The translations under genes and the position numbers were made by a program. 64,000 bases of DNA from assembly GCA_016188295.1 (NCBI GenBank), contig JACPIA010000003.1:30-64029 (forward strand), in the 5' to 3' direction. Shown here one piece after another: positions 15,799 through 59,440 of the stretch (the first letter of the stretch is position 1; every line of letters starts with the position of its first letter). A model generated the notes under the pieces. It ran no database searches and was not told where the DNA came from. It saw only the letters and a list, made by a program, of their open reading frames with translations. The DNA comes from Candidatus Vogelbacteria bacterium. GTDB taxonomy: Bacteria; Patescibacteriota; Minisyncoccia; Phycocordibacterales; XYD1-FULL-46-19.

Positions 15799-15802
15799 GA
15801 AA

Positions 15803-16253
15803 GAGCCTGGTCGGATAGTTGCCCCGCCAGTAGTGGGGAGGAAAGTCCGAACATCCTTGATCTTTGATTTAGAAGTACGTCGTGGGTAACGCCCACCCAG
15901 TTGTATGTGAATACAATTGAGGGACAGTGCCACAGAGACAATACTACCCGCCAATATCTTTTAAGGTTGTGGCGGGGAAAGGTGAAAAGTCTATGGAGGT
16001 TTACGCCACCATAGAGAATCCGTAGCGATACGGATACTTGGTAAACCCGACGTGATGCAAGGCCGTGATAATTTAGAGGTTGGAGATTTGAGGTGGGAAG
16101 TTGGATAATCTAATTTCTAACTTCCCACCTCCAACTTCTACTTTGTAGTGCCGCTTGACCCCGAGAGTAATCGAGGGGCTTAGATAAATAACTATCGTCC
16201 AGACTAAAACGTCTGGATACAGAATTCGGCTTATAGATCAGGCAAACAATATC
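15803..16253 (+). ncRNA. rnpB: RNase P RNA (bacterial type A-like)
   Basis: Conserved blocks GGAGGAAAGTCCG, GGGTAACGCCCACCC, CAGTGCCACAGAGACAA, GGTAAACCCGAC and ACAGAATTCGGCTTATAG. P1 pairs GCCTGGTC with GATCAGGC. Carries an extended perfect hairpin at 16078-16140. Confidence 0.85.
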
Positions 16254-20628: not shown

Positions 20629-20826
20629 TTATAGGTTTTTTATTTTAATTCCTGCCTCCTCTAACACCTCTCGCTTGGCCGTATTTTCAAATGACTCCCC
20701 ATACTCCAAATGCCCACCGGGTACGGACCAACTACCGGACCTGTGTGAATTAGCTCGTTTAAGCATTAAAAATTTACCTTCTTTAAAAATAAAAACCCCG
20801 ACCCCAACTCTCGTCTGTTTTTCCAT
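20629..20826 (-). pseudogene. NUDIX hydrolase, truncated (N-terminal 65 aa only)
   Basis: Intact Nudix box GGHLEYGESFENTAKREVLEEAGI, but the ORF stops about 20 aa after it. Normal Nudix proteins are 130 aa or longer. Confidence 0.5.
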
Positions 20827-26450: not shown

Positions 26451-27131
26451 TTAAGCAGCCAGTTGTGGGAGGACAACGCGAGGCCGGTAGACCGCGTACC
26501 AGACACTGTCGTTCGAAAAACGGTAAACGTCCACCCGCAGCCCGCCGTCGTCGTCCAGGTCCACGTAGGCGATGAAGAATTCTTCTCCCTGTTTAAAGAG
26601 GAAGAGGGTAGCATATTCACTGGTACGTAACCACCCCCCATATTTCTGTACAAACTGCTTGATTTGGTGCTGGGTCAAACAGAGCTGATCCAAGTTACCA
26701 CCAACACTGTTAAAGAATTGGTTAAACCGACCGTTCTTGACTAACTCATGCACTTGGACCTTCGTGGCAGGAGTGGCCGTCGCTGGTAGACCCAAACCCC
26801 AACTGGTAAAGCAATCATCGATCCAAACAAACAGATCTTTGGCTTTGGCCAAGGTTTCGGTACCGTCAGTCGGGTCGAGAGTAATTTCCTCTTTGCCCGA
26901 AATGAGCTTGAGAAAACCATTGGCCTCGCGGTATTTGACCACAAACACTTCCGTTACCTCGGCCAGAACCTTGCGACCTTCGTCAGTGTTAGTCCAGTAG
27001 AGAATGTTTTCATCCATCCCAAGCTTTGCGAGCGTTTTGCCAATGACCACCAGCGACTCGCTCAACACCGCGCCAAACAAACCAAACAATTTTTCCATGA
27101 CCAGTCTCCTGGTTGTGCTTCTGTCCCTCAC
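26451..27131 (-). CDS. hypothetical protein (paralog 2 of a tandem pair)
   Basis: 226 aa, paralogous to 25462-26163. The probable true start is the internal MEKLFG. The P2 palindrome lies about 100 bp upstream. Confidence 0.55.
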   Translation of the reverse strand: MRDRSTTRRLVMEKLFGLFGAVLSESLVVIGKTLAKLGMDENILYWTNTDEGRKVLAEVTEVFVVKYREANGFLKLISGKEEITLDPTDGTETLAKAKDLFVWIDDCFTSWGLGLPATATPATKVQVHELVKNGRFNQFFNSVGGNLDQLCLTQHQIKQFVQKYGGWLRTSEYATLFLFKQGEEFFIAYVDLDDDGGLRVDVYRFSNDSVWYAVYRPRVVLPQLAA

Positions 27132-27227: not shown

Positions 27228-27269
27228 ATTATTCCAAAAAATACGCTATAGCGTGTAATTTGGAATAAT
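27228..27269. repeat. P2 palindromic element, copy 1 (ATTATTCCAAAAAATACGCTATAGCGTGTAATTTGGAATAAT)
   Basis: Outer arms ATTATTCCAAA/TTTGGAATAAT and inner palindrome ACGCTATAGCGT. The same family occurs at 58754 and 59398. Confidence 0.75.
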
Positions 27270-45093: not shown

Positions 45094-46617
45094 ATGAAAT
45101 ACATAATCTATGCGAGAAAATCTACCGAGAGCGAGGAACGACAAATCATGTCTATTGAATCCCAGCTTTCTGAATTAAAAGAATTTGCCGCCAAAGAAAA
45201 ACTTGAAATTGTTGCTTCGCTTTGCGAAGCCCAAACTGCCAAAGAACCTGGGCGAATTAAATTCGCTGAAATGTTGTCATTTCTGGAGAGTGGAAAAGCA
45301 GACGGAATTCTCTCTTGGAATCCAGATCGTCTCGCCCGAAATTCCATAGACGGAGGACAGATTATCTATATGCTGGACACAGGAAAAATTAAGGACTTAA
45401 AATTTCCGACTCATTGGTTTGAAAATACACCGCAAGGAAAATTTATGCTGAACATTGCATTTGGGCAAAGCAAATACTATGTAGATAATCTAAGTGAAAA
45501 TATCAAACGCGGACATAGAGCAAAATTAAGAAAAAGCATTTGGCCCGGCTTTGCCCCGCTTGGCTACACCAACAATCATAAAACGCGAGATATTGATGTT
45601 GACCACGAAAAAGCTCCGTTCATACGAAAGGGTTTTGAATTGTATGCGACTGGAAAATATACGCTAAAACAGATTGCAAAAATTCTCAAAGATTTAGGAT
45701 TGCGAAGCTACAAAGGAAATGTCCTTTCAGTTTCCTGTGTCCAGCGATTTTTGCAGAATCGATTTTACTACGGACTGTTTGAATTCAAGGGCGAGACGCA
45801 TCAAGGAACGCACGAGCCAGTTATCACGAAGAAACTTTTTGATAAATGTCAGGAAGTTATGAAGGATCGCGGACATATTAAAACGAGAAAAGCAGAGAAA
45901 ACTTTTCCATTTCGCGGATTACTCGCTTGCGGAGAATGTAGTTGCGCTATTACTGCCGAGACACAAAAAGGTCATAACTATTATCGTTGCACGAAAAAGA
46001 AAATCGCTTGTTCGCAAAAATATGTCCGCGAAGAATTACTAACGGAACAAGTAAAAAGTTTTCTTCAAAAAGTTTCTTTATCGAGCCAAGACACCGAAAA
46101 AGTTTTGCGTGAGCTGGACAAAGACGAGCAGAAAGCAAAAGCGAGTAGTTTCGTAATCGTTCAAAATCTGAAGAGTGAGTTATCCGACATCGGCACAAAA
46201 TTGAATAAATTACTTTCTGCGTATCTCGACGAGATAATTACTTCGGAAGAGTATGCCACGCAAAAACAAAAAATGCTCTCACTCAAAATAGAGTGTGCGG
46301 AAGAAATCAGGGAAATTGAAGATGGAATTGTGTCTTGGCTCGAACCGGCTCGTGCGTGGATTAAATCCTTAAATCAAGCAGAGAAACTGCTTTCCTCTGG
46401 GGATAAGTCGGAAATGACAACATTTCTAAAACAAAACGGCTCGAACCATATTTTGATCGATAAATCCTTTTCCTTTTCGCCCGAAAAGCCCTTTCAAATT
46501 CTAGCCGAGCGGCGCGTTTCGCGCCGCTCGGCATCATCTTTCCACTTGCGAAATCCTGAATTGCGGAAGGGGAGGGATTCGAACCCTCGAGAGACTTTTA
46601 CATCCCTACCTCGTTAG
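45094..46617 (+). CDS. large serine recombinase (resolvase/invertase N-domain plus recombinase domain plus zinc ribbon plus coiled-coil)
   Basis: N-terminal IIYARKSTESEERQIMSIESQ catalytic-Ser region, recombinase domain and zinc ribbon CGECSC...YYRCTKKKIAC, 507 aa. The last ~50 codons read through repeat B-prime into the tRNA-Ser flank. The true C-terminus is probably near 46460. Confidence 0.8.
   Translation: MKYIIYARKSTESEERQIMSIESQLSELKEFAAKEKLEIVASLCEAQTAKEPGRIKFAEMLSFLESGKADGILSWNPDRLARNSIDGGQIIYMLDTGKIKDLKFPTHWFENTPQGKFMLNIAFGQSKYYVDNLSENIKRGHRAKLRKSIWPGFAPLGYTNNHKTRDIDVDHEKAPFIRKGFELYATGKYTLKQIAKILKDLGLRSYKGNVLSVSCVQRFLQNRFYYGLFEFKGETHQGTHEPVITKKLFDKCQEVMKDRGHIKTRKAEKTFPFRGLLACGECSCAITAETQKGHNYYRCTKKKIACSQKYVREELLTEQVKSFLQKVSLSSQDTEKVLRELDKDEQKAKASSFVIVQNLKSELSDIGTKLNKLLSAYLDEIITSEEYATQKQKMLSLKIECAEEIREIEDGIVSWLEPARAWIKSLNQAEKLLSSGDKSEMTTFLKQNGSNHILIDKSFSFSPEKPFQILAERRVSRRSASSFHLRNPELRKGRDSNPRETFTSLPR
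46462..46566. repeat. GC-rich inverted repeat B-prime, abutting and overlapping by about 3 nt the 3-prime end of tRNA-Ser(GCT)
   Basis: aaatccttttccttttcgcccgaaaagccctttcaaattctagccgagcggcgcgtttcgcgccgctcggcatcatctttccacttgcgaaatcctgaattgcgg. Confidence 0.85.
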
Positions 46618-47332: not shown

Positions 47333-47424
47333 TTCTTAATTATTTGCAAACCAACTAATCCACACCTCCATTTTAAATCAATAATCATTTATTTTATCTC
47401 TTATTGCCCCTTCTTCATCCCTTT

Positions 47425-47469
47425 CAATTGTACCATCTTCCAGTGATCACGTTTACTTGGTACAATTGA
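47425..47469. repeat. P3 palindromic direct repeat, left copy (caATTGTACCAtcttccagtgatcacgtttactTGGTACAATtga)
   Basis: 10-bp perfect inverted arms AATTGTACCA/TGGTACAATT around a 22-nt core containing GTGATCAC. A second copy lies at 48070-48113. Confidence 0.8.
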
Positions 47470-47475
47470 TCTAAA

Positions 47476-48051
47476 ATGAAACATAAAACCAATAACATTA
47501 AAAGGGTTTATAGCCCCATGAAGCAAAAAATAATACTTTTACTTCACGCCGGCATTGCCTTATCCTTAACTCGTACCGCTAAAAAACAAATCTATCTTTT
47601 AAAAACCACACATCGAAAATGGCAAAAAATCGAAAAAAGAAAGCTTTATCGCTTAATTCGTGAATTTCACCATGAGCGACTAGTTGATTGGCGAGAGTAT
47701 AATGATGGTAGTATTAGCATCACCTTATCTCAAGCTGGCAAAAAACTAGCGCAAAAATTTGATTTTGATAATATGACTCTTCCGCAATCAGGACGATGGG
47801 ATAGGAAATGGCGAGTAGTGATGTACGATATTCCTCAACCAAAACAGGCTACTCGTGATGCTTTAAGGTCAAAATTAAAAGAATTAGGTTTTAAAGAATT
47901 CCAAAAATCCGTTTTCATTTACCCCTACTCTTGTTGCGATGAAATCAATTTTATTATTGAATTTTTTGATATTAGACCATATGTCACCTTTGGTGAGTTA
48001 GTTAATCCAACCAATGAAGCTTCATTAAAAATGAGTTTTGGTGTTAAATAA
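47476..48051 (+). CDS. wHTH plus Cas2-like (Cas2/VapD-fold) domain protein, paralog A (PaaX-like architecture)
   Basis: C-terminal RWRVVMYDIPQPKQATRDALRSKLKELGFKEFQKSVFIYPY matches the Cas2 core pattern (hhhYDh..kr..kv.k.L...G.r.Q.SVF). The N-terminal roughly 100 aa is a basic helix-rich domain. About 45% identical to 58811-59374. Confidence 0.55.
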   Translation: MKHKTNNIKRVYSPMKQKIILLLHAGIALSLTRTAKKQIYLLKTTHRKWQKIEKRKLYRLIREFHHERLVDWREYNDGSISITLSQAGKKLAQKFDFDNMTLPQSGRWDRKWRVVMYDIPQPKQATRDALRSKLKELGFKEFQKSVFIYPYSCCDEINFIIEFFDIRPYVTFGELVNPTNEASLKMSFGVK

Positions 48052-48069
48052 ATTTTTAAAAATAAATCT

Positions 48070-48113
48070 AATTGTACCATCTTCCAGTGATCACGTCTAC
48101 TTGGTACAAGTTG
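48070..48113. repeat. P3 palindromic direct repeat, right copy
   Basis: 41/44 identical to 47425-47469. Confidence 0.8.
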
Positions 48114-48188
48114 TGATTTTATAGGATTCAATTTATCTAGCGACCTAACTAATTTGGTGTTTATTTAAATTAGTACTATAATTTTAAG

Positions 48189-48545
48189 ATGAACAGGTTT
48201 GGGTTGATTGGATTAATAGTGGTAATTATTGTGGTCGGCTTAATTGCTTGGCAATATGAAATCCCGTCCAGCCAAACACCGACTATCAGTGATCTTAATC
48301 AAAACAAAGTGGAGCCTGGCACTATTAGAGTGGAGGGTTATGTGGTTAAAAAATCTATTAAGAGTGGTAACATTATCATTTCCCAAACTAATGAATCCCT
48401 CACTGATTACACCCAATTAACTGATGATGATTTGATTATTTACCTCGATCATCCCGATCGCTATAATCTGGGCCAAAAATATACTTTCGAGTTAATGTTG
48501 GAAAGTTACGACAGCCAAGGCCACCCAATCTATAGTTTGAAATAG
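48189..48545 (+). CDS. hypothetical membrane-anchored protein
   Basis: 118 aa with an N-terminal TM. Precedes the GspE-like gene. Confidence 0.45.
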   Translation: MNRFGLIGLIVVIIVVGLIAWQYEIPSSQTPTISDLNQNKVEPGTIRVEGYVVKKSIKSGNIIISQTNESLTDYTQLTDDDLIIYLDHPDRYNLGQKYTFELMLESYDSQGHPIYSLK

Positions 48546-48553
48546 ACTGCCCT

Positions 48554-49768
48554 ATGGCCGCCGAGGCAATTACACAAGAATTAGCGCGAGGCGGATCTGT
48601 CTCTATTATTAATTTAGTTAATTGTTTGATCAGCCAAGCGGCGGAAGTGGGTGCCTCTGATTTACATCTCGACCCATCAGAGTCAGGACTGGAAGCGCGT
48701 CTGCGTATTGATGGCGTGCTGGAGGATTTATGTCACATCCCTAAAGAAATTAAGTCTGAAGTAGTCTCCCGGATTAAAGTGGTCGCCGGTCTCCGGACTG
48801 ATGAGCACCAGATGCCACAGGATGGCCGCTTCCGCCACCTTTTCCCTAACCAACACTTTGTCGACATCCGCGTCTCGATTGCCCCAACGTACCATGGTGA
48901 GAATGTGGTTTTGCGCCTACTCTCCGACAAGGCTGAGGATTTTAGTTTAGGGATGTTGGGGTTTAGTGAGAGTGATCAAGTAAAAATTGGCCAGGCAATT
49001 AAAAAATCAAGTGGGATGATTTTAGTCACCGGGCCCACTGGTTCTGGCAAAACCACTACTCTATACACTTTAATTAAAATGCTTAATTCTAAAAGCGTTT
49101 CGATTATTACCGTCGAGGATCCAATTGAGTATGCCATTTGTGGCATTAAACAAATTCAAGTTAACCCACGCGCCGGCCTCACTTTTGTCACCGGCCTCCG
49201 GACCATTTTACGCCAGGATCCTAATATTATTATGGTCGGCGAAATTCGCGATGTCGAGACCGCCAGCATGGCCGTCAACACCGCTTTAACCGGCCACTTA
49301 TTACTTTCGACCTTACACACCAACGATGCCGCCACTACCCTACCGCGCTTGTTGGATATGAAGATTGAATCTTTTTTAGTCGCCTCCACTGTTAGTGTCG
49401 CCATCGGCCAACGCTTAGTCCGCCGGATTTGTAGTAAATGTAAAGAGAAGATAATAGTCACCCCAGCTCTAGCTCAAAGTTTGGCCGCTATTTGTTTAGC
49501 TCAACCGATATTAAGTGGCGAGATTTTTTACCGAGGTAAGGGTTGTGAGTATTGCCACCACAGTGGTTACACTGGTCGACTAGTAATTAACGAGGTCTTA
49601 GTCGCTACTCCTAATTTACGCGAAGCGATTTTAAACAAAGCCTCGGCTAGCCGATTAAAACAAATTGCAATCACCGAAGGAATGACCACTATGATCGATG
49701 ACGGTTTTATTAAAGCACGCTCCGGCCAAACTACCATTGAGGAAGTCTTACGGGTGATTCATGAATAG
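48554..49768 (+). CDS. GspE/PilB-family secretion ATPase (short form, ComGA-like)
   Basis: Walker A GPTGSGKTTT, Asp/His boxes and a tetracysteine CSKC...CEYCHHSG, 404 aa. Lacks the long N-terminal domain. Confidence 0.8.
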   Translation: MAAEAITQELARGGSVSIINLVNCLISQAAEVGASDLHLDPSESGLEARLRIDGVLEDLCHIPKEIKSEVVSRIKVVAGLRTDEHQMPQDGRFRHLFPNQHFVDIRVSIAPTYHGENVVLRLLSDKAEDFSLGMLGFSESDQVKIGQAIKKSSGMILVTGPTGSGKTTTLYTLIKMLNSKSVSIITVEDPIEYAICGIKQIQVNPRAGLTFVTGLRTILRQDPNIIMVGEIRDVETASMAVNTALTGHLLLSTLHTNDAATTLPRLLDMKIESFLVASTVSVAIGQRLVRRICSKCKEKIIVTPALAQSLAAICLAQPILSGEIFYRGKGCEYCHHSGYTGRLVINEVLVATPNLREAILNKASASRLKQIAITEGMTTMIDDGFIKARSGQTTIEEVLRVIHE

Positions 49769-50837
49769 ATTATTTCAACATCACACCAAGTGGTCGATTA
49801 AAGAACAATCGTTTTTTGCCAAACGATTATCGTTTTTAATGAGCGCCGGTTTGCCACTTTTAGATAGCCTCCAACTTTTGCATCGACAAACCAATGTCCG
49901 TTCGCGCTCAAATAAAGTGCTGGATACTTTAATTGATGATATTGCCAGTGGTTATTATTTGTCTAAAAGTTTAGCCCGCTTCCCCACTATTTTTGGCCAG
50001 TTTGCGGTTAATATTGTCAAAATCGGCGAGGAGAGTGGTATCTTAAGCCAAAACCTCAATTACCTCGCCGCCGAATTAAAAAAGAAGCAAATTCTCCGCC
50101 GTAAAATAATCAGCGCTTTAATTTACCCAATAATTATTACTTTGGCCACTTTAGGCATCACCGCTTTTTTGATGATTTACCTTTTTCCTAAAATTATGCC
50201 GATTTTTACCAGCCTCCGTGTCGACTTACCATTAAGCACTAAAATAGTGATTGCGATTAGTAGTTTTTTGCATCACTGGGGACTAGCTTCTTTAATCGGT
50301 TTAAGCTCTAGTTTGATTATTTTAGCAACCACCATTAAAAAGAATCGACCAATCAGACGCTGGTATGAAAAATTATTATTAAAATTACCGGTACTGGGGA
50401 CCATGATTAAAAATTACAATTTAGCCAATGCCAGTCGGACCTTGAGCTTATTACTCCAAAGCAATATGACTTTAAATGGCGCCTTAGCGATCACCGCCGA
50501 AACTAGTGAAAATCTAATCTTTAAAAACACTTGGCAAACTTGGGCAGAGATCGCTAATCGGGGCGAGTGCCTGGATTTTGCTTTAAATAAAGAAGGAACC
50601 AAGGTCTTGCCCGACATTTTTAAACAATTAGTCTCGGTTGGTGAGGTCAGTGGCAACTTAGCCGACACTTTAATGTATTTATCCGAGCTTTACGAGCAAG
50701 AGCTGGATGATATTACCAAAGATTTATCAACGATGATTGAGCCGGCCTTAATGATTTTTATGGGCTTATTAATCGGCTTTATCGCCATTTCGATTATTAC
50801 TCCAATTTATAGTTTGACCCAAAATTTACATGGCTAA
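49761..50837 (+). CDS. GspF/PilC-family platform protein (ComGB-like)
   Basis: Duplicated GspF domain and 3 TM segments, 358 aa. Confidence 0.75.
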   Translation: MNRLFQHHTKWSIKEQSFFAKRLSFLMSAGLPLLDSLQLLHRQTNVRSRSNKVLDTLIDDIASGYYLSKSLARFPTIFGQFAVNIVKIGEESGILSQNLNYLAAELKKKQILRRKIISALIYPIIITLATLGITAFLMIYLFPKIMPIFTSLRVDLPLSTKIVIAISSFLHHWGLASLIGLSSSLIILATTIKKNRPIRRWYEKLLLKLPVLGTMIKNYNLANASRTLSLLLQSNMTLNGALAITAETSENLIFKNTWQTWAEIANRGECLDFALNKEGTKVLPDIFKQLVSVGEVSGNLADTLMYLSELYEQELDDITKDLSTMIEPALMIFMGLLIGFIAISIITPIYSLTQNLHG

Positions 50838-51309
50838 AACTGGACCTGCCCTGAGCTTGTCGAAGGGTTTTACTTTGATTGAAATTGTTTTGGCACTTGG
50901 TTTAATTGTCTTCGTCGCCGGTTTTGCTTTAACTATTGACTATCAGCGTTACCAAAAGCAGTCACTAAAGACCGAACAACAAACCATAATCACCCTATTA
51001 CAAACCGCTCGTTCCCAAGCTATTAATAATATTGGCCAATCTTCTCATGGCTTAGTAATTTATCCACCAGATGAACCGCAAAATTATGTTTTATTTACGG
51101 GGACAGATTACAGTACTAGTGACCCAACCAAAAATCAAATTATTGAGTCTGGTTATAACTGGGACTTAGCCTCTACCTCTTTAAGCCAGGTGATATTTAA
51201 TCAATTAAGTGGTGATGTAAATACGGCCGGAGAAATTATTTTAATCGATCCTGTTAGTAATAACACTAGCACTATTTCTGTAAATCATGAAGGAGCCATC
51301 AATTGGTAA
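50830..51309 (+). CDS. prepilin-type pseudopilin/pilin
   Basis: N-terminal [21 protein letters not shown]. Confidence 0.6.
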   Translation: MAKTGPALSLSKGFTLIEIVLALGLIVFVAGFALTIDYQRYQKQSLKTEQQTIITLLQTARSQAINNIGQSSHGLVIYPPDEPQNYVLFTGTDYSTSDPTKNQIIESGYNWDLASTSLSQVIFNQLSGDVNTAGEIILIDPVSNNTSTISVNHEGAINW

Positions 51310-52714
51310 TAATTGCGGTTTTAGTACTTTAGAGATAACGCTCGCCTTCGCGATTATGAGTCTCGCGCTTAGTGGTGTCGTTTTTGCTTTGTTTGGGACT
51401 AACTACTGGACCATTGCCGCCCAAAGGCACACCACTGCCATCACCGAAGCTGAAGCTAAGTTAGAAGCTTGGCACCACTTAACGCAAACTGATTTCCTCT
51501 CGGCCAGCTCGAGTGAAATTAGTGATCTCTCCCCCTGTATCAAAGAGGTCGCAGTAAAAATAAGCTGGCAAGTCACTCCTTATCCTACCAGCACTGTAAC
51601 TTTATTTAGTCTATTGACTAATCCTAGCGAGGCTAAAGCCTTGGGTGGTGATTGTTTATTCAACGAGCCTAGGGCTGATTGGTCTAATCCCATCTTAGCC
51701 TCGAGTACTACTTTTAGCTCTCGCCCCTTAGCGATTGACATTTTAAACGAAACTACTTATTTAGCCACTGATCAAAGTCCTTATTTTAAAATCATTACCG
51801 CAAGTGGTGAGCAAACTTTCGCAAATTACTTTCAGGTGGGCGATTTAATTAATGATTTGGATGTAGTTTATAATCCAGACACTCAAAAAACTTATGCTTA
51901 TGCCGCCATAGCCTCATCGACTAATCAATTCCAAATTATAGAGGTGACTGACCCACAAAATCCGGTTTTAATAGCCAGTCGATCGTTATATGGTGTCGAC
52001 CCCACCGGCACCGCCCCTGAAGGTTGGCGTTTAACTTATTATGACCACTTTATTTACTTAACTACCCGTTTTACCGCTGGTCCAGAATTCCACATCTTTG
52101 ACGTTACTGATAACACTAATCCATTTGAGATTAGTGTTGGTAGAAATTTAAACACCTCTGTTTATGATTTAGCAGTTAGAGATCAGACAATCAATGCGAC
52201 AACTTATCGCTTAGCTTATATGGCTACCACTCAAGACAGCCAGGAATTACAAATCTTAGATGTCACTGACCCCACTACAATCCAAACTTTACCTAGTCTA
52301 AATTTACCAGACAGCTCAGCTTGCGTGTCCAATGAGCCTGATACTAAGACGATTTTCATTGCTGGTTATACTGCCTATGTCGGTCGAGAGAATTTAACCA
52401 ATTGTGCCACTTTACCTGATTTATACTTAATTGATATTAGCAACCCCATCGCCACCACTAGTATTAAAGCAAGCGCCAATCTCGGTACTAGTGTCATTGG
52501 CCTTAAAGTCAGCGGACAAAATATTTTTGTTGCCACAACCAATATAACTAATCCGCCAGCCAGTAAACTCCTAGATCTTAATGGAAATTATCTTTATTTA
52601 GCCAAAGATAAAGCTAGATTGGTTGAGATTTGGCAACAAAACCAAACTGTTTTAACTAAAATCGGTACTTACACTGCCAGCCTCGAACCCTTACAACTAA
52701 TTACCTCTCCATGA
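51287..52714 (+). CDS. prepilin-like N-terminus plus large LVIVD-repeat (beta-propeller-like) domain protein
   Basis: N-terminal GFSTLEITLAFAIMSLAL and repeated motifs of type QIIEVTDPQNPVLIA / LQILDVTDPTTIQTL / LYLIDISNPIATT (LVIVD-like), 475 aa. Confidence 0.5.
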   Translation: MKEPSIGNNCGFSTLEITLAFAIMSLALSGVVFALFGTNYWTIAAQRHTTAITEAEAKLEAWHHLTQTDFLSASSSEISDLSPCIKEVAVKISWQVTPYPTSTVTLFSLLTNPSEAKALGGDCLFNEPRADWSNPILASSTTFSSRPLAIDILNETTYLATDQSPYFKIITASGEQTFANYFQVGDLINDLDVVYNPDTQKTYAYAAIASSTNQFQIIEVTDPQNPVLIASRSLYGVDPTGTAPEGWRLTYYDHFIYLTTRFTAGPEFHIFDVTDNTNPFEISVGRNLNTSVYDLAVRDQTINATTYRLAYMATTQDSQELQILDVTDPTTIQTLPSLNLPDSSACVSNEPDTKTIFIAGYTAYVGRENLTNCATLPDLYLIDISNPIATTSIKASANLGTSVIGLKVSGQNIFVATTNITNPPASKLLDLNGNYLYLAKDKARLVEIWQQNQTVLTKIGTYTASLEPLQLITSP

Positions 52715-53139
52715 CTAAACAAGGTTTTACTTTAATCGAAGTGATTATTTATATTGCCTTATTTGGCTTATTAATTGGTGGCGCTTTAGTCGCCACTTAC
52801 GAGATAATTTCGAGCGATAATCATCAACAATTAGCCATTATCACCGCTCAAGACAGTGCTTTCATTAAGGCTAAAATCACTTGGGTCTTAAGTGGTGCCA
52901 CTAATATTTATAGTACTGGTAATAGTTTAGTTATAGATAACCCGAGCCTGGGCCTAATCACCCTGGAGGAGGTAGACCATAACTTAACGATCAAACGTGG
53001 ATCAAACCCAGCCTTACCATTAAATAGTAGCTTATTGAAAATTACTGATGTTAATTTTATCGTCACCACCAGTAGTGTAACCACTAATTTAATAACCAAC
53101 CAAAAACCTTTTATTTTTATAAACTATTTACATTATTAG
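52711..53139 (+). CDS. prepilin-type pseudopilin
   Basis: N-terminal TKQGFTLIEVIIYIALFGLLIGG. Confidence 0.55.
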   Translation: MTKQGFTLIEVIIYIALFGLLIGGALVATYEIISSDNHQQLAIITAQDSAFIKAKITWVLSGATNIYSTGNSLVIDNPSLGLITLEEVDHNLTIKRGSNPALPLNSSLLKITDVNFIVTTSSVTTNLITNQKPFIFINYLHY

Positions 53140-53156
53140 TCTGTATAGTAGAAATA

Positions 53157-54290
53157 CTAGCGAATTAAGTGATCGAAGATCTGGGATATTTGAGGAGCGA
53201 GGTGGTCCCAGTTGTAATTGTTTTTAATTAGAGCGCGGGCCATGTTGATCACCTCCCAGACTTGTTGTTGGTTATCGGGGTCTGTAATGTAGCTAACTTT
53301 TTCAGCTAGTTTATTAGCATCATCAACAGGCACTAAAAAACCAGTTTGATTGTCTTTAAGAAAGTCTAGTATCCCCCCCACTGGCGTAGCAATCACTGGC
53401 ACCCCAGCAGCCATCGCCTCTAGAAAAGAAACGCCTAAACCTTCAGAACGTGACGGGCGAACAAAGACACTGGCTTGGTTTAACTCACTAAATAATTGAT
53501 GATTAGGCACATTGCCTAAAAATATCACCTTATCTTCTACTTTTAATTTTTTAGTTAATTGTTTTAAATTAACCTCCTCGGGACCACCACCAGCAATACG
53601 TAATTTAAAATTACTGGGTAATTTAGCTAAAGCTTGGATAATAATATCTACCGCATTTTTGTGAACCAAGCGCGAGGCAGTGAAAATAATTTTTTCGGTC
53701 CTAGTATCTAACCGCTCTTGATCGCAATAAAAAGTTTTTAAATCAATACCATTAGGCACTACTGTAACTGGACAAGTAGCACCCATACGCTTCGCCCAAT
53801 CAGCCAAATAGTGCGAAATACATTGAACATGATCAGCTTTCGTAAATATTTTTTTAAACCACCACCAAGCACCGAGCATTTTCATTTTAGTCTCTAAAGC
53901 CTTGAGATCATCGCCTTCTTGTAAAGAGAGCAGGTAAGGAGTGTTGAGGTTAGCTTTTTTAAACGAAGTGGCAGCCAGACCACCGTAACTAGCCATCATC
54001 GACCATACCAAAGCTGGCTTATTTTTTTTAGCTAACCACTTAGCGTAAGTAGCACCTGTTAATACCAAAACAAATTTATCTAGTTTAGTCCCCCAACCCA
54101 AGCGGTGAATAGTAACATTACCTATACTTTCTTTAGCTGGTAATAATCGCTTAAATCGTGCGGTGATAATCTCAAATTGATACTCCGGTAGACGTTTGAT
54201 AATTTCTGTTAAAGCCACTTCCGCACCGCCAATTAGTGGCCAATAAGCAGTAGTAAAAACAAAAACACGCTGAGACATATTATTTACCAT
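53157..54290 (-). CDS. glycosyltransferase family 1 (GT4-like)
   Basis: GT-B fold with the E-x7-E context (RPSRSEGLGVSFLEAMAAGVPVIAT), 377 aa. Confidence 0.75.
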   Translation of the reverse strand: MVNNMSQRVFVFTTAYWPLIGGAEVALTEIIKRLPEYQFEIITARFKRLLPAKESIGNVTIHRLGWGTKLDKFVLVLTGATYAKWLAKKNKPALVWSMMASYGGLAATSFKKANLNTPYLLSLQEGDDLKALETKMKMLGAWWWFKKIFTKADHVQCISHYLADWAKRMGATCPVTVVPNGIDLKTFYCDQERLDTRTEKIIFTASRLVHKNAVDIIIQALAKLPSNFKLRIAGGGPEEVNLKQLTKKLKVEDKVIFLGNVPNHQLFSELNQASVFVRPSRSEGLGVSFLEAMAAGVPVIATPVGGILDFLKDNQTGFLVPVDDANKLAEKVSYITDPDNQQQVWEVINMARALIKNNYNWDHLAPQISQIFDHLIR

Positions 54291-55944
54291 CTACTTTTAA
54301 CATCGAGCGGAGCTGGTCCTCGGGTATCTCTTTGGTTGTTTGAGTCATTGGTTGACTTGATGTAGGAGCCGATGTCGGTGCTGGCTTAGTCTCAGTCAAC
54401 ACATCATTAAGCGCCGCTCGAAGAGCATCTTTATGTTTACCAGTATCTTTGGATTTTGGCGCAACAGCAACTAAGGTATTTAATGAAACCTTAGCTTCTG
54501 GTACAGCTCGTTCTAATTGAGGTTTAGGGGTAATTGGTGCGGGCGCCGGTGTGGCTACTTGAACCACCGGTGCTGGAGGTGGTGTTGGTGGCTTGGGTTT
54601 AGGTATAGATGTTGCCCGAGGCTTTGGTACGGGTTCTAACTTAGGTTCACTATTACCCTTCTCATCATGAAATTGCCCGATCACCTCTTCTACTTTGATT
54701 CGAGGCTGAGAGTAAGTCTGGCGCGACCACTCCACAATCTCGGCTTTAAAGTTATTCTCGGCCGGCACAATTGGCGGCAAAGTCACGGCCGAGAATGGCC
54801 GAGATCCGACTCCATCGATCATTAAAGTCAAATAAATTTGAGCAAAACCTAAATTGACCAGATCCTCGGCGGTAAATACCGGGGCAAAGATCTTTTCTAA
54901 CAATTCCGCATCTAGTGGCCCAACCCGAAAGGCAATCGTAGTACCAACGTTGCCAAATACCGCACTGCGCACCGTTTCGGGCATTTGCTCAACATATTGA
55001 TGAGCGATCGTTAACGACAATTTATATTTGCGGGCTTCGGATAAAATATCAGCAAAAGTGTCATTAACAAAAGACTGGAACTCATCGACATATAAATAAA
55101 ATGGTGGCAACCGGCGAATCTCATTGTCGCTAACATTGGCTCGCGACATCGCCCCTAAATAAAGTTTAGTGATTAAGAGACTACCCAACAAACTGGCATT
55201 TTGCTCACCAATTAAACCTTTAGATAAGTTGATGATCAAAATCTTTTTTTGATCCATTAATTGGCGAATATCAAAATTAGATTTAGGCTGACCAATAATA
55301 TTGCGAACCAGCGGATTGGAAGTAAATTGACCGATTTTGTTTTGAATCGCCGGCACCGCCTCGGCGGCAAATCGCTCGGTATAACCGGCATACTCTTTAA
55401 CCCAATAACTTTTAACTGACGGGTCGGTAATATTAGCAATCACTTTATTGCGATAATCCTTCTCGGCAAGCATTTTATTAATACCGAGCATGGTTGATCC
55501 CGGATACTCCAATAGAGCTAAAATGGTATTCTGTAAAATATACTGCATTCGATCGGAGAAACTCTCTTCACCAAACAGTTTTTTGAAAGCACTCATGAGG
55601 CCAGACAACACCAAGTGACGTTGATCTTTGCCCACATCCTCCATTACATTAAAAGCAATCGGATAATCAAGGTCGAACGGTGCAAAATAAACGACATCTT
55701 TTATCCTTTCTTGTGGCACATAATCCAGCAGCAAATCAGCGGTCTTGCCGTGAGGATCAATAAAGGCCATCCCCTCACCATTTTTAATGTCTTGAATCGC
55801 CAAATTCTCGAGCAAGGTCGATTTACCCATACCGGTTTTACCGATAATGTAGACATGTTTAGACCGATCCTCGGCTTTAATACCAAAAGTCGTCTTTTTG
55901 CCCCGGAAATCCGTTTGAGCAAAATAATTAATAAGAGAGGTCAT
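54280..55944 (-). CDS. TraD/VirD4-like (type IV coupling protein family, FtsK/HerA-superfamily) P-loop ATPase with Pro-rich C-terminal tail
   Basis: Walker A YIIGKTGMGKST, Walker B YLYVDEFQ and an IAHQ motif. C-terminal low-complexity PKPKPPTPPPAPVVQVATPAPAP. Confidence 0.5.
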   Translation of the reverse strand: MTSLINYFAQTDFRGKKTTFGIKAEDRSKHVYIIGKTGMGKSTLLENLAIQDIKNGEGMAFIDPHGKTADLLLDYVPQERIKDVVYFAPFDLDYPIAFNVMEDVGKDQRHLVLSGLMSAFKKLFGEESFSDRMQYILQNTILALLEYPGSTMLGINKMLAEKDYRNKVIANITDPSVKSYWVKEYAGYTERFAAEAVPAIQNKIGQFTSNPLVRNIIGQPKSNFDIRQLMDQKKILIINLSKGLIGEQNASLLGSLLITKLYLGAMSRANVSDNEIRRLPPFYLYVDEFQSFVNDTFADILSEARKYKLSLTIAHQYVEQMPETVRSAVFGNVGTTIAFRVGPLDAELLEKIFAPVFTAEDLVNLGFAQIYLTLMIDGVGSRPFSAVTLPPIVPAENNFKAEIVEWSRQTYSQPRIKVEEVIGQFHDEKGNSEPKLEPVPKPRATSIPKPKPPTPPPAPVVQVATPAPAPITPKPQLERAVPEAKVSLNTLVAVAPKSKDTGKHKDALRAALNDVLTETKPAPTSAPTSSQPMTQTTKEIPEDQLRSMLKVDGK

Positions 55945-55965
55945 TTGTTTATAGTATAGCCAGTT

Positions 55966-57141
55966 TTAAGGTGCGGTGCTAGTGGCGATATTAAGTTGAT
56001 AAGCACTATTAGTGTATTTATTAGACGGGTCCCACATCATCCAGGAATTAATACCGAGATCGTAGAGAGCTTGTTTTTGCGCTTCAATCATTTTAGCAGT
56101 ATAATCGGCACCAAGACTAAAATCTTGCAACCATGGCCGGATTTTAGCCACCGTCGAGCTGGCCGCCACCGTCTTATCGATCGCCCCTTGAGCGGCGATT
56201 TTAATCATCGCATAAGGGTGCTCCGCCGGATTAGCAAAACCATTAAAGGTCGGCGGATAATGCGAGGGATAAATCATTGGAGCTAAATAATCAAAGTGAG
56301 GTAAGGCCCGTTCCCAGACCTGGCCGATCCCTAAATCATCGTTATTGGTAGTGGTCATGCCAAATAAATCGGCCGAAATAGGGATAGTCAATAATGATAA
56401 TTGCTCGTCCAAATATTTAAAGAAAGATTCTAACGCCTCGGGTTTAGTTTGCTCATTAGAATTATAAAAACGGTAAGCAATGTCCTGCATATTACCGTCA
56501 GAAGGAAAACGGATATAATCAAAATTAAGCTCGTCAAAACCAACTTGTTCAGCCATCTTACCTACCATTACCGTGTAATCCCAAACCTCATGTGAGCCTT
56601 GATCGAGCCAACTAACGCCCTTGTGATCCCTCCACATTTCACCATCACTAGCTCGGATCACCGCTAAGTCTGGCCGCGTTTTAGACAAATGGCTATCTTG
56701 AAATACTGAAATCCGGGCAATCACGTAAATATTTTTTTCATGAAGGCGTTTGATTAAACCCTCTATATCGAGAATACGCTGACTCATACTCCCATATTTA
56801 GACATTGCGGTATTGGTCGCCGTAAAAGAGATGATGCCGGTATAATCTTTAACATCAATCACCACAGCATTAATCTCCGTTTGATCAATCAAATTGATCA
56901 ACGGTTCACGAATACTAGCGGTACCCGCTACCCAACTGGTCATATATACCGCTCGTAATGGATCAGGGGTTGGTAAATGTCGTGGTTTGGATGGAGTAAC
57001 GGCCACTGTCAGATTGTCGCTATCACCAGAAACATAAGAAGTGCTCGGCCAAATCAAACTGGAGATTAAAATTAAACCAATCAAAGCTGCCACTATCAGC
57101 AACGCTCGGCCAAATTTAGATTTAATTGCTTTCTGGGTCAT
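55966..57141 (-). CDS. putative glycoside-hydrolase-like TIM-barrel protein (DUF4015-like), membrane-anchored
   Basis: N-terminal TM. FDELNFDYIRFPSDG and AVVIDVKDYTG motifs resemble the GHL families. Low certainty. Confidence 0.35.
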   Translation of the reverse strand: MTQKAIKSKFGRALLIVAALIGLILISSLIWPSTSYVSGDSDNLTVAVTPSKPRHLPTPDPLRAVYMTSWVAGTASIREPLINLIDQTEINAVVIDVKDYTGIISFTATNTAMSKYGSMSQRILDIEGLIKRLHEKNIYVIARISVFQDSHLSKTRPDLAVIRASDGEMWRDHKGVSWLDQGSHEVWDYTVMVGKMAEQVGFDELNFDYIRFPSDGNMQDIAYRFYNSNEQTKPEALESFFKYLDEQLSLLTIPISADLFGMTTTNNDDLGIGQVWERALPHFDYLAPMIYPSHYPPTFNGFANPAEHPYAMIKIAAQGAIDKTVAASSTVAKIRPWLQDFSLGADYTAKMIEAQKQALYDLGINSWMMWDPSNKYTNSAYQLNIATSTAP

Positions 57142-57349
57142 GCCAGTCTTTGCGAGCCTCTTGATACTTAATCGCGTGGACTAACTGGCGATTAGCCACT
57201 ATCCCAAACAAAACAATCAATAAACCGGCGGCAAGTAAAATAAAATTATCAATAGTCAGAGGCAAACCCAAAAAGGGCACCAAAGCGACAACGACCCCTA
57301 AAATAGTAATAGCGCGATTGCGCCACAAAGCGCGAGTATTATCTTCCAT
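57122..57349 (-). CDS. hypothetical small membrane protein
   Basis: 75 aa with 2 TM segments. Overlaps the neighbour by 20 nt. Confidence 0.35.
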   Translation of the reverse strand: MEDNTRALWRNRAITILGVVVALVPFLGLPLTIDNFILLAAGLLIVLFGIVANRQLVHAIKYQEARKDWHDPESN

Positions 57350-57356
57350 ACGGCGA

Positions 57357-58730
57357 CTAGTATATCACAGCTTGGGCCACTTGGCCTATATCCCCAGCTC
57401 CTAAAATGACCACTAAATCGCCAGGACTAGTTGCCGCTTTAATAAAAGTGATAGCATCGGTTAATTGGGGAGTATAGTGGACTACCTTTTTTTGTTTAAC
57501 GATTAATTCAACTAGATCTCGACTGCTGATGTGAGGATCGAGCGCCTCACGGGCGGCGTAAATGTCCGTGATCGCAATAATATCAGCATCGGTAAAACTG
57601 TTAGCAAACTCTTTGAGAAGTAATTTGGTTCGACTATAGAGATGGGGCTGAAAGACGGCGATGAGCTGTCCGGGAGTAATACTTTTTTGGCGGGCGCGCA
57701 AAAATTCCCGCGCGCCCGCCAACGTGGCCCGGATCTCGGTGGGATGATGAGCGTAATCATCGTAAACCAAAGCCCCATTCTCCGTTGCACCTTTATACTC
57801 AAAACGCCGCCAAGTGCCAGCAAAATCCGCTAGAGCATTTAAGGCGACCACTTGGCTGATCCCTAAAATTTTAGCCGTCGCTATAACCGCCTTGGCATTA
57901 AGCACATTATGGACACCAGGCACTTTAAGTTTTGGTCTAATCCGACTAGCGGTCCAATCAATTATTGTACATTTAGCTTTTTTTAGCACTGGTCTTAATA
58001 CTTTATCCTTAGTATTACAAATGACATAACCATCCTCCGGCACTTTAGCCACTAACTCACCAAACGCTTTTTGAATATCTTTTAAATCTTTATAGTAATC
58101 TAGATGATCAGTCTCAATGTTGGTAATAATCACCATATTGGGGTGTAGATTTAAAAACGAGCGCTGATACTCGCAAGCCTCCACGATCAATAAATCACTG
58201 TGGCCGGCAATAAAATTAGAACCAACATTATTGTGATTTTTAATCAGACTACCAACAATCACTGTAGGATCTTTTTCAGCTTCGACGCAGACTTGAGCCA
58301 GCATCGCGGTGGTAGTGGTCTTACCGTGCGTGCCGGCGACAGCCACGGTATATTTGTCGCGGGAAATTATACCAATCATCTCCGGGTAAGTGACACAAGG
58401 TATGCCATATTTTTTAGCAATCATTAATTCCGGATTGTTAGCTGGTATCGCTATAGTATAGACCACCAAATCTAGGTCATTAGTAATATGACTGGCGGTA
58501 TGACCCTCATAAATCATTGCTCCCGCCCGCGCCAATTCCTCCGTCACTAGCGACTTACTGCGATCCGAGCCACTAACTTGTTTACCTCCGCCCAACATCA
58601 TCCGAGCAATGGCCGAGACGCCAATTCCCCCAATGCCAATAAAGTGCACCTTTCTTGCCTTGAGCAAAGTCGAAGGATTACTTCCATATATAGACTCCAT
58701 ACGTCCCCAATTAAAGCATTTTACTGACAC
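57357..58730 (-). CDS. murC: UDP-N-acetylmuramate--L-alanine ligase
   Basis: N-terminal VHFIGIGGIGVSAIARMM, Mur ligase central GTHGKTTTT and a C-terminal domain. Confidence 0.85.
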   Translation of the reverse strand: MSVKCFNWGRMESIYGSNPSTLLKARKVHFIGIGGIGVSAIARMMLGGGKQVSGSDRSKSLVTEELARAGAMIYEGHTASHITNDLDLVVYTIAIPANNPELMIAKKYGIPCVTYPEMIGIISRDKYTVAVAGTHGKTTTTAMLAQVCVEAEKDPTVIVGSLIKNHNNVGSNFIAGHSDLLIVEACEYQRSFLNLHPNMVIITNIETDHLDYYKDLKDIQKAFGELVAKVPEDGYVICNTKDKVLRPVLKKAKCTIIDWTASRIRPKLKVPGVHNVLNAKAVIATAKILGISQVVALNALADFAGTWRRFEYKGATENGALVYDDYAHHPTEIRATLAGAREFLRARQKSITPGQLIAVFQPHLYSRTKLLLKEFANSFTDADIIAITDIYAAREALDPHISSRDLVELIVKQKKVVHYTPQLTDAITFIKAATSPGDLVVILGAGDIGQVAQAVIY

Positions 58731-58753
58731 AAAAACAAAATGACAGCCAACTA

Positions 58754-58797
58754 ATTATTCCTCCCAAAAATACGCTATCGCGTATTTTTTGGTATAA
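58754..58797. repeat. P2 palindromic element, copy 2 (overlaps the -35/-10 region of the downstream gene)
   Basis: ATTATTCCTCCCAAAAATACGCtatcGCGTATTTTTGGTATAAT with 12-bp arms CCAAAAATACGC/GCGTATTTTTGG. TATAAT at 58792-58797 sits 13 nt before ATG 58811. Confidence 0.8.
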
Positions 58798-58810
58798 TCA
58801 TATTTATATT

Positions 58811-59374
58811 ATGAGAAGTAAACCCAAGAACATCCATAGCCCTCTAAAACAGAAGGTGCTTACTCTCTTGCTGGCTGGTACCGCCTTGGGACTAACCCGA
58901 TCCTACAAAACCCAAAAGAGAATCTTAAAATCCATACCTAGAACCTTGAGGGATATTGACCGGGGCTATCTGTACCGTATTCTTGATGAATTTAATAACA
59001 ACCGATTAATTGACTGGAAAGAAAAAGCTGATGGTTCTATTTGTTTGATCATTACCGAAAAAGGCAAAGAAACCGCTCTTCAATTTAACCCTGATTTTCT
59101 TAAAATCAAACGACCGCCCATTTGGGATAAGCGTTGGCGAGTAGTTATTTATGACATCCCCGATAAGAAAAAGAGCGCCCGTGACGCCCTACGATACAAA
59201 TTAAAAGAGCTCGGTTTTAAAGAGTGGCAGAAATCTGTTTTTATCCATCCCTACCCTTGTCTCAATGAAATTAACTTTACTGTCGAATTTTTTGATGTCC
59301 GGCCTTATGTCCGTTATGCCGAACTAATCAATCCAACCAATGAAGCGGAGCTTAAACTACATTTCAAAATCTAG
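58811..59374 (+). CDS. wHTH plus Cas2-like domain protein, paralog B
   Basis: C-terminal RWRVVIYDIPDKKKSARDALRYKLKELGFKEWQKSVFIHPYPCLNE is the Cas2-like core. Paralog of 47476-48051. Bracketed by inverted P2 elements. Confidence 0.55.
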   Translation: MRSKPKNIHSPLKQKVLTLLLAGTALGLTRSYKTQKRILKSIPRTLRDIDRGYLYRILDEFNNNRLIDWKEKADGSICLIITEKGKETALQFNPDFLKIKRPPIWDKRWRVVIYDIPDKKKSARDALRYKLKELGFKEWQKSVFIHPYPCLNEINFTVEFFDVRPYVRYAELINPTNEAELKLHFKI

Positions 59375-59397: not shown

Positions 59398-59440
59398 ATT
59401 ATTCCATTTTATACGCGATAGCGTATTTTTGGGAGGAATC
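59398..59440. repeat. P2 palindromic element, copy 3 (inverted relative to copy 2)
   Basis: Its reverse complement GATTCCTCCCAAAAATACGCTATCGCGTATAAAATGGAATAAT shares a 28-bp identical core with copy 2. Confidence 0.8.

Follow-up and report, generated by a model that had tools for sequence, protein, structure and literature searches.

A short PaaX-like protein family of Patescibacteria with a Cas2-like domain and paired flanking palindromes: predicted DNA-binding regulators and their candidate operators

PaaX is the phenylacetyl-CoA-responsive repressor of the paa catabolon, and Cas2 forms a homodimer which, in its complexes with Cas1, extends along duplex DNA. Here we describe two paralogous genes whose products are related to both, in a stretch of 64,000 nucleotides (nt) from Candidatus Vogelbacteria bacterium, a member of the Patescibacteriota (GenBank assembly GCA_016188295.1, contig JACPIA010000003.1, positions 30 to 64,029 of the forward strand); this whole stretch is called the window below. 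Each gene encodes a protein with a predicted winged helix-turn-helix (wHTH) at its N-terminus, followed by a Cas2-like domain, and each is flanked on both sides by copies of its own palindrome. An earlier note on this DNA, made from the letters without database searches and referred to as the original prediction, had taken the products for Cas2-like or PaaX-like proteins that stand alone, apart from any CRISPR system, and had suggested that they may be regulators, or else addiction or mobility factors, of the repeat-bounded cassettes in which they lie. The profiles, the structural model and the fold search described below all concur with the assignment to these protein types.

In PaaX, a wHTH and a dimerisation motif precede a C-terminal ligand domain; the protein binds the site TGATTC(N27)GAATCA, about 39 bp long, and represses its own promoter, Px, through steric hindrance of RNA polymerase (PMC9493321). 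Its middle domain is the Pfam family PF20803, PaaX_M, and because Pfam explicitly describes PaaX_M as a Cas2-like domain, neither the protein type nor the domain combination is new: the combination is already catalogued. Full-text searches on PaaX in connection with Cas2 or in Patescibacteria (the Candidate Phyla Radiation, CPR) yielded no account of a short form with paired palindromes. What appears to be new is a short, Patescibacteria-specific paralogous family together with paired palindromes that share a conserved centre.

Domain architecture and relation to PaaX and Cas2

The two genes and their domains lie as follows.

47476..48051, plus strand: gene 1, a wHTH plus Cas2-like PaaX_M protein of 191 amino acids (aa) (open reading frame call, Pfam, AlphaFold2, Foldseek)
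47515-47757, plus strand: gene 1 wHTH, about residues 14-94
47788-48039, plus strand: gene 1 Cas2-like domain, about residues 105-188
58811..59374, plus strand: gene 2, a 187-aa paralog of gene 1 (open reading frame call, paralog alignment, profile matches)
about 58841-59083, plus strand: gene 2 wHTH
about 59114-59365, plus strand: gene 2 Cas2-like domain

Both open reading frames (ORFs) are real, and both products contain the block WRVV[MI]YDIPxxKxAxRDALRxKLKELGFKExQKSVF[IY]xPY on which the original prediction was built. The two proteins are 53% identical over 182 aa (E 9e-68), and a tblastn search of the window found no copy besides these two. An NCBI entry named 'hypothetical protein', from a Candidatus Vogelbacteria metagenome-assembled genome, matches the gene 1 protein at 100% identity but is annotated with a start 14 codons further in. 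Because the residues from 9 on, ahead of the NCBI start, are conserved between the paralogs, we took the first ATG as the start of gene 1. Gene 2 is separated on its 5' side from murC by a divergent gap, in which its upstream palindrome lies, and its 3' end is convergent with an NlpC/P60-like gene.

The Pfam family PF20803 ('PaaX protein central Cas2-like domain') covers residues ~105-174 with E values of 9.5e-21 for gene 1 and 3e-20 for gene 2, and its bit scores (74.1 and 72.5) are above the gathering score of 24. The Cas2 model PF09827 scored 23.5 and 21.5 bits, just under its cutoff of 23.8, and TIGR01573 (cas2), with a cutoff of 24.5, was passed by gene 1 (25.0 bits) and missed by gene 2 (24.0 bits). 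The Cas2-family models match just the first ~37 residues of the domain, and PaaX_M outscores the Cas2 model by ~50 bits. Matches to TIGR02277 (PaaX) were partial, at 28.4 and 26.7 bits against an equivalog cutoff of 264.55. Neither protein had a Pfam match to the PaaX_C domain, and both stop ~15 residues past the Cas2-like domain.

We built an AlphaFold2 model of the gene 1 protein from the family alignment. The mean predicted local distance difference test (pLDDT) score was 82, with values above 90 throughout the C-domain and of 55-85 in the N-domain (residues 14-94). The N-domain was modelled as three helices and a beta-hairpin wing, and the C-domain (residues 112-175) as a ferredoxin-like beta-alpha-beta-beta-alpha-beta fold followed by a final helix. 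In a Foldseek search of the PDB the first rank was taken by PaaX of E. coli W (8A39; E 3.4e-5, 198 columns, both domains aligned), followed by many true Cas2 structures (3EXC, 5ZYF, 2IVY, 6JHZ and others) with target-normalised template modelling (TM) scores of 0.5-0.65; the PaaX-like protein Rv0674 (3KFW) and VapD (3UI3) were also matched. A full-length profile search of the PDB recovered no PaaX structures at E<=1, and the matches of a single-sequence PDB search (mitoribosomal mL41) were weak and set aside as spurious. Thus, the fold search was required to establish the link to PaaX, because sequence and profile searches of the PDB had missed its structures.

A profile of the C-domain alone aligned the pattern hhh[FY]D[IV]P..R..L...GF..QKSVF to beta1-alpha1-beta2 of five solved Cas2 structures, Asp on Asp; the E values were weak (0.06-1), yet the register was identical in five of five. 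The invariant D118 is aligned with the Asp of the YDV/FDL motif of Cas2 in 3EXC and 6JHZ. By hhalign, the family aligns to residues 61-171 only of E. coli K-12 PaaX. In an alignment of 61 sequences the invariant positions (gene 1 numbering) are W108, D109, W112, D118, R127, F139, Q143, S145 and F188, all of them in the C-domain, and the mean pairwise identity is 43% for the N-domain and 56% for the C-domain. No HUH motif (His pair) or catalytic Tyr was found among the invariant residues of this alignment.

These results bear out the resemblance of the C-terminal block to Cas2 and PaaX that the original prediction had drawn, including the position of the Asp that it called catalytic, which is invariant in the 61 homologs and falls on the beta1 Asp of solved Cas2. 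Two of its terms need to be narrowed. The label 'endonuclease' stands for the fold alone and not for an activity; the equivalent part of PaaX is described as a dimerisation motif (PMC9493321). The parallel with PaaX holds for the succession of a wHTH and a Cas2-like domain, and fails for the placement of the latter at the C-terminus of PaaX, where it is in fact the middle domain.

The likeness to E. coli PaaX (8A39; PF07848 + PF20803 + PF08223; TIGR02277) is the closest over both domains: an N-terminal wHTH in PaaX, and a predicted one in the family, precedes the Cas2-like domain, and a W-D-x-K-W lead-in to beta1 is common to both (W-D-G-K-W in PaaX). In contrast to the 316 residues of PaaX, which include PaaX_C, the family proteins are ~185 aa long and end after the middle domain. 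PaaX has Glu where the family has the invariant Asp, and it is without the Q-K-S-V-F motif. With Cas2 (PF09827 / TIGR01573; 3EXC, 2IVY, 5ZYF, 6JHZ) the family shares the ferredoxin-like fold, the beta1 Asp and the pattern hhhh[YF]D[IV]...R..L...G[FL]..Q.SVF, aligned residue by residue. However, Cas2 is a stand-alone protein of ~90-110 aa, whereas the family proteins have 180-200 aa with a fused wHTH, lack a nearby cas1 or array, occur as several diverged paralogs per genome and fit PaaX_M far better. Rv0674 of Mycobacterium tuberculosis (3KFW) aligned over 178 columns and both domains at Foldseek rank 9, with a weak E value of 0.046; unlike the family, it (234 aa) and the Jannaschia PaaX-like protein 3L09 (~300 aa), both PaaX-family proteins solved by structural genomics, are longer and carry C-terminal helical extensions, and the family profile recovered neither sequence at E<=1.

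We conclude that the proteins are PaaX-like and cut off after the Cas2-like middle domain. They are not PaaX proper, being without PaaX_C, far under the equivalog cutoff and without paa genes, and they are not Cas2 proper, given the fused architecture, the lack of cas1 or an array and the borderline scores. Judged by sequence, the family's Cas2-like domain is nearer to true Cas2 than is PaaX's own middle domain.

The family is large. A word-indexed search returned 114 clusters, all of ~180-195 aa and all from Patescibacteria/Parcubacteria, under inconsistent source names ('hypothetical', 'DNA-binding transcriptional regulator PaaX', 'phenylacetic acid degradation operon negative regulatory protein', 'CRISPR-associated endonuclease Cas2'). 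A profile search of 1.84 billion cluster representatives gave 788 matches at E<=1e-30 (clusters at 50% identity), 3217 at <=1e-10 and 5858 at <=1e-3. The best 150 matches were mostly 180-200 aa long and aligned over nearly their full length, and the close cluster representatives (~790) were all 180-200 aa with an N-terminal wHTH. At least 325 encoded relatives came from a scan that took one genome for each species; the family-wide locus counts below rest on the best 80 loci among them, which are all from Patescibacteria. Many genomes supply two or three of these loci, and paralogs within one genome are 51-82% identical, never near-identical. One locus (L018) carries two family genes in tandem (4447..5031 and 5667..6257), 63% identical and with palindromes detected in their flanks; none of the other loci among the 80 has such a pair.

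The claim that CRISPR components are missing from the surroundings was confirmed within 64 kb. Neither Tandem Repeats Finder nor a direct-repeat search (spacing <=120 nt) found a CRISPR array in the window. PADLOC, run on 71 non-overlapping ORFs, matched 16 families, and the only cas matches were Cas2 models (E 4.6e-6), at genes 1 and 2 alone. Among 549 neighbour proteins (within four genes on either side, 80 loci of other genomes) there were no cas genes and no recurrent partner gene. These neighbours fall into 397 clusters, so that contexts are very varied; the commonest are glycyl-tRNA synthetase (GlyRS, 10), DnaE (8) and ribosomal protein L32 (5), then an ATP-binding cassette (ABC) ATPase and methionyl-tRNA synthetase (MetRS). 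No paa genes were found in the window or at the 80 loci, where the neighbours are housekeeping genes.

Paired palindromes around the family genes

The original prediction had placed the two genes in 'repeat-bounded cassettes'. These boundaries are real, and consist of a 40-nt direct repeat around gene 1 and a 42-nt inverted repeat around gene 2, each copy of which is a palindrome.

47424..47469, no strand: gene 1 upstream palindrome, tcaATTGTACCA-N22-TGGTACAATtga, centre GTGATCAC (repeat and palindrome scans)
48070..48109, no strand: gene 1 downstream palindrome, a 40-nt direct copy of 47426-47465, 98% identical
58757..58798, no strand: gene 2 upstream palindrome, ATTCCTCCCAAAAATACGCTATCGCGTATTTTTTGGTATAAT, centre CGCTATCGCG (inverted-repeat search)
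59398..59439, no strand: gene 2 downstream palindrome, an inverted 42-nt copy with 88% complementarity to 58757-58798, placed where the 3' ends of gene 2 and the NlpC/P60-like gene converge
27228..27269, no strand: third element of the gene 2 type, ATTATTCCAAAAAATACGCTATAGCGTGTAATTTGGAATAAT, 81% identical, ~31 kb from gene 2

Written as palindromes, the gene 1 elements read CAATTGTACCA-N22-TGGTACAATTG around the central GTGATCAC, and the gene 2 elements read CCAAAAATACGC-TATC-GCGTATTTTTTGG, extended by ATT..CC / GG..AAT. The right arm of the upstream copy ends ~10 nt 5' of the ATG in gene 1 (TGGTACAAT) and 12 nt 5' of the ATG in gene 2 (TGGTATAAT). In both genes this arm contains TGGTA[TC]AAT, 10-12 nt 5' of the ATG, and if the two arms are extended -10 boxes, as their sequence suggests, the transcripts would be nearly leaderless. 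As DNA hairpins, the upstream palindromes fold with -9.9 kcal/mol (z -4.8) for gene 1 and -9.8 kcal/mol (z -6.95) for gene 2. A terminator consensus scan around both genes found none at the gene ends, and an Rfam scan of the window returned only tRNAs and RNase P, with no match at the elements. The downstream palindrome of gene 1 begins 19 nt past the stop and ends ~80 nt 5' of a 118-aa ORF that heads a type II secretion system (T2SS)/type IV pilus-like operon (48189-53139; Pfam T2SSE E 6e-118, T2SSF E 3e-48). This operon also has several ORFs with prepilin-like N-termini by eye; the other 80 loci showed no repeated association of the family with pilus genes.

The third element of the gene 2 type is intergenic, ~97 nt upstream of a minus-strand 226-aa ORF (26451..27131) with no Pfam match, and folds as a DNA hairpin with -11.6 kcal/mol (z -6.8); it is a candidate additional, distal operator. 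The window also contains an orphan, near-perfect 40-nt palindrome of the same class at 20875-20914, in which GTGGTCTCTATTTTCTACG meets ACCGTAGAAAATAGAGACCAC at the centre ACGACCGT (DNA hairpin -17.9 kcal/mol, z -11.9). It has no family gene beside it and lies among apparent gene fragments, such as a truncated NUDIX-like ORF at 20629..20826 on the minus strand.

The pairing of palindromes is seen across the family. In the 80 loci from other genomes, the 150 nt upstream and the 150 nt downstream share a repeat (score >=18) at 47 of 78 family genes, compared with 4 of 285 controls (ORFs of 120-300 aa outside the family, taken from the same loci). When the elements were aligned on their symmetry axis, the centre, CGA to one side of the axis and TCG to the other, was strongly conserved, and the arms varied by locus; the commonest centres were ACGATCGT (19), GCGATCGC (8), GCTATCGC (6) and GCGGTCGC (5). 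Arm complementarity was high at positions 1-4 from the axis, 0.56-0.68 at 5-7, 0.73-0.94 at 8-19 and at background beyond ~22. Because complementarity is high, lower, high again and then at background with distance from the axis, the element is tripartite and ~42 bp long, with outer arms at 8-20 bp from the axis, a less symmetric spacer of 3 bp and a CGATCG-type centre.

A finder anchored on this centre (no more than one mismatch to CGATCG, at least 13 of 22 arm pairs) returned 122 elements in 815 kb of family loci and 4 in shuffled sequence. Most of them (94 of the 122) lie within 200 nt of family gene ends, a zone that makes up ~4% of the sequence. With the strict finder, an upstream copy is present at 40 of 77 genes, a downstream copy at 52 and both copies at 37. 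The median distance from the end of the upstream copy to the start of the longest ORF is 27 nt, and that from the stop to the downstream copy is 22 nt. The pair is present in 52-67% of genes in all four neighbour-orientation classes (co-directional, divergent, convergent), and relative to the gene the two copies are direct in 25 cases, inverted in 11 and undecidable in 3. The element belongs to this gene family, since it is rare in Patescibacteria DNA without family genes: 538 kb around murC homologs held only 5. It is therefore neither a general terminator nor a repetitive extragenic palindromic (REP) element of Patescibacteria. The first of these candidates was rejected on this rarity, and a REP-like dispersed repeat was rejected on the same ground and because most loci have just the two flanking copies. 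Only these two were present at 33 of 42 loci, and the other nine have one or two extra. Elements away from family genes are intergenic in 17 of 24 cases, against 13% intergenic sequence, and 13 of the 24 sit 49-250 nt upstream of a gene start. This family-wide tie to flanking palindromes strengthens the original suggestion that the proteins are regulators.

Proposed autoregulation and competing explanations

We lean towards the reading that the proteins are autoregulated, dimeric repressors that bind the flanking ~42-bp palindromes. By analogy with PaaX and Cas2, a dimer would form through the Cas2-like domain and would bind the palindrome specific to each paralog. On the upstream copy, over the gene's own putative extended -10, the dimer would block RNA polymerase and thereby bring about negative autoregulation, as PaaX does at Px. 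The second copy, past the stop, may be a second operator that serves looping, a roadblock or insulation, or the control of the next promoter where one exists, and the occasional extra copies may mark a small regulon. The elements are similar in scale and layout to the PaaX operator: its ~39-bp spaced palindrome and its occlusion of the PaaX promoter match their scale and position (PMC9493321). Unlike in PaaX, the candidate operators are paired around the gene and have a CGATCG centre, and no paa genes are nearby. As the ligand-binding domain PaaX_C is missing, any signal would have to be something other than the phenylacetyl-CoA to which PaaX responds. That the invariant residues all lie in the C-domain parallels the anatomy of the element and suggests that the variable wHTH may read the variable arms and the conserved Cas2-like domain may cover the conserved centre. 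In such an arrangement the Cas2-like dimer would lie over CGATCG and the wHTHs would reach the arms ~14 bp to either side.

Several observations weigh against this reading. The N-domain had no match to the Pfam PaaX N-domain or any other helix-turn-helix model at E<=10, and its profile matches (MarR/SlyA/PadR, E 0.02-0.7) are weak. A simple sigma-70 scan called no promoter in the upstream copies, which have no -35 box; the scan demands a -35 box, and for this reason extended -10 boxes went unscored. The downstream copy is equally frequent next to a convergent gene (14 of 27), where it would have no promoter to control. The Cas2 beta1 Asp and Q-K-S-V-F, both lost in PaaX, are retained in the family, and a purely structural role in dimerisation would not obviously need them. 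Spearman and partial correlations over 1653 pairs gave a rho of 0.11 between arm similarity and N-domain identity and of 0.14 for the C-domain, and the arms are unchanged only above ~80% N-domain identity. Co-variation of arm and wHTH was therefore dropped as support, as it is weak and does not favour the N-domain. Finally, the symmetry itself is stricter than expected. When the two copies around one gene are compared, identity is 87% at paired and 49% at unpaired positions; of 43 double substitutions at paired positions, 37 re-create a complementary pair, as about one third would by chance, and several elements are perfect palindromes with arms of 20-26 bp. Such symmetry exceeds what the half-sites of a dimer need and could stem from real hairpins or cruciforms, or else from quasi-palindromes being corrected by template switching, a known mutational process. 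With these points counted, we still favour, by a modest degree of confidence, the reading of the family as autoregulated repressors, with the palindromes as candidate operators.

A second explanation, which we regard as unlikely, is that palindrome, gene and palindrome form a selfish or semi-mobile cassette. The protein would recognise the hairpin or cruciform of its own palindromes and nick or process it via the Cas2-type acidic site, promoting duplication or relocation of the ~700-bp unit. The logic would be that of the insertion sequences (IS) IS200/IS605 or of REP elements and their REP-associated tyrosine transposases (RAYT), with a different chemistry. Like the TnpA of IS200/IS605, between its left-end and right-end (LE/RE) hairpins, and like RAYT, between flanking REPs, the family has a gene for a small ferredoxin-like protein, similar to the RNA-recognition motif (RRM), between similar palindromes in a unit of ~700 bp. 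Unlike them, it is without HUH/Tyr, without high-copy dispersal or identical copies, and of mixed palindrome orientation. We offer the likeness as a functional analogy and propose no membership.

In keeping with a cassette, the gene is flanked by presumed sites of its own product whatever the orientation of its neighbours, its contexts are very varied with no conserved partner, compensatory changes keep the arms complementary (37 versus 6), long perfect palindromes occur, and the invariant Asp and the Cas2 signature are kept. Some in-genome paralogs are 70-82% identical, which points to lineage-specific duplication of the unit. In all 80 relatives of the murC neighbour, a block of Mur ligase, NlpC/P60, murC, orf75 and a 391-aa gene is co-directional (NlpC/P60 and orf75 where present), and none of them carries a family gene there; in the window, gene 2 lies in this block in reverse. 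The murC-upstream gap is filled in relatives by other small genes, such as a PemK/MazF-like ORF, and this position appears to accumulate accessory insertions. The gaps seen were at 3547-3882 of locus L087 (with the PemK/MazF-like ORF of 111 aa), 3571-4001 of L083 and 2454-4001 of L090.

On the other side, there are no near-identical copies in any genome, the maximum identity being 82%, and on this ground we judged an active IS-like element unlikely. The usual number of elements is two per locus, their orientation is mixed, and neither HUH/Tyr nor any other known transposase motif is among the invariant residues. The neighbours include no regularly linked recombinase, and some synteny recurs, with GlyRS within four genes in 10 loci and DnaE in 8. 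The closest murC relative in a metagenome scan is only 57% identical, so the insertion would be old and its boundaries undefinable. A dif/Xer-like or serine-recombinase site was likewise set aside on the conserved centre with variable arms and on the lack of a regularly linked recombinase; recombinase core sites have the reverse layout.

A bolder version of the cassette is one we hold to be quite improbable. In it, the Cas2-like domain itself would recognise, and perhaps cut via the invariant Asp, the CGATCG centre of an extruding palindrome, and the unit would be self-propagating. If this were true, we would be dealing with a free-living Cas2 relative that acts on palindromic repeats in a sequence- or structure-specific way, and the family would offer a concrete, non-CRISPR, ancestor-like state that joins Cas2, PaaX and palindromic repeat recognition.

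A single-chain module of the toxin-antitoxin kind, in which a nuclease toxin of the Cas2/VapD fold would be autoregulated, antitoxin-style, by its fused wHTH from a palindromic operator, seems very unlikely to us. It would fit the match of the model to both Cas2 and VapD folds (VapD 3ui3), the invariant Cas2-type Asp, the palindromic candidate operator over a promoter-like box, and the PemK/MazF-like gene in the murC-upstream gap of a relative. However, there is no conserved partner beside the family gene, a covalent fusion has no obvious release mechanism, and broad conservation with two to three diverged paralogs per genome is more like a regulator family. The nuclease activity of Cas2 is, moreover, generally weak and dispensable for its CRISPR role.

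We give still less credence to the elements acting as RNA hairpins, as a 5' leader and a 3' terminator or stabiliser that an RRM-like Cas2 domain would bind or cleave, in post-transcriptional autoregulation or transcript insulation. The stems covary, many elements are bordered by A-runs and T-runs, and the molecule names of structure entries report RNase activity for Cas2 and VapD members. Among the arm mismatches, G.T pairs outnumber A.C pairs downstream (25 versus 14), but this skew is not significant (p 0.11), and the upstream copies have 17 G.T and 16 A.C mismatches, with no sense-strand G.U bias. T-runs after the stem (~20%) are no commoner than A-runs before it (~17%), so that there is no sense-specific T-tail. 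The lack of both a G.U bias and a T-tail asymmetry, together with the mixed orientation of the copies, argues that the symmetry acts on DNA and not on a transcript hairpin, and an RNA hairpin or terminator was rejected as the main explanation. If the right arm is the -10 box, the upstream hairpin would not even be transcribed. The elements in the window have 20-nt internal loops and fold weakly, and the scans above showed neither terminator-like sites at the gene ends nor Rfam matches.

That these are true Cas2 proteins at work in CRISPR adaptation, their cas1 and array lying elsewhere in the genome, is scarcely credible: the TIGR01573 score of gene 1 (25.0 versus 24.5 bits), the PADLOC match and the Cas2 label that sources give to several homologs stand against the lack of an array or other cas gene in 64 kb and of any cas gene among the neighbours at the 80 loci, the ~50-bit lead of PaaX_M, the wHTH fused to each member, the presence of several diverged paralogs in a genome, and palindromes proper to each gene in place of a repeat-spacer array.

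Patescibacteria have tiny genomes; to our knowledge, very few recognisable transcription factors are found in them and their gene regulation is experimentally almost unstudied. If the autoregulatory reading is right, the family may be among the main regulator families of CPR bacteria. The analysis corrects a recurrent mis-annotation as 'Cas2' and gives each paralog a specific candidate cognate DNA element of defined anatomy, which makes simple in-vitro tests possible. Because it is closer in sequence to Cas2 than the PaaX middle domain is, the family may also shed light on how DNA-binding regulators came to acquire the Cas2 fold, or on the opposite route.

Other features of the window

A large serine recombinase ORF (45094..46617, plus strand, 507 aa) lies upstream of gene 1 between 114-nt inverted repeats (44939-45052 and 46453-46566; 98% complementary). 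The right repeat arm falls within the 3' end of the ORF and adjoins a tRNA-Ser(gct) gene (46563-46652, minus strand), and each arm has a GC-rich hairpin. This unit (44939-46652) may be an integrated or invertible element beside the tRNA gene. Between it and gene 1 there is an ORF with a GIY-YIG nuclease domain (46664-46993, minus strand, 109 aa; Pfam E 4.4e-14).

The RNase P RNA is of class A (15803-16249, plus strand, 160.6 bits), and an overlapping minus-strand ORF (15589..15954) is probably spurious. The other PADLOC matches among the ORFs of the window were to the models SoFic (Fic-domain, E 7e-42), mad8 (two ORFs, best E 7.3e-16) and PDC-S04, and a HerA match is probably the 554-aa ATPase at 54280..55944.

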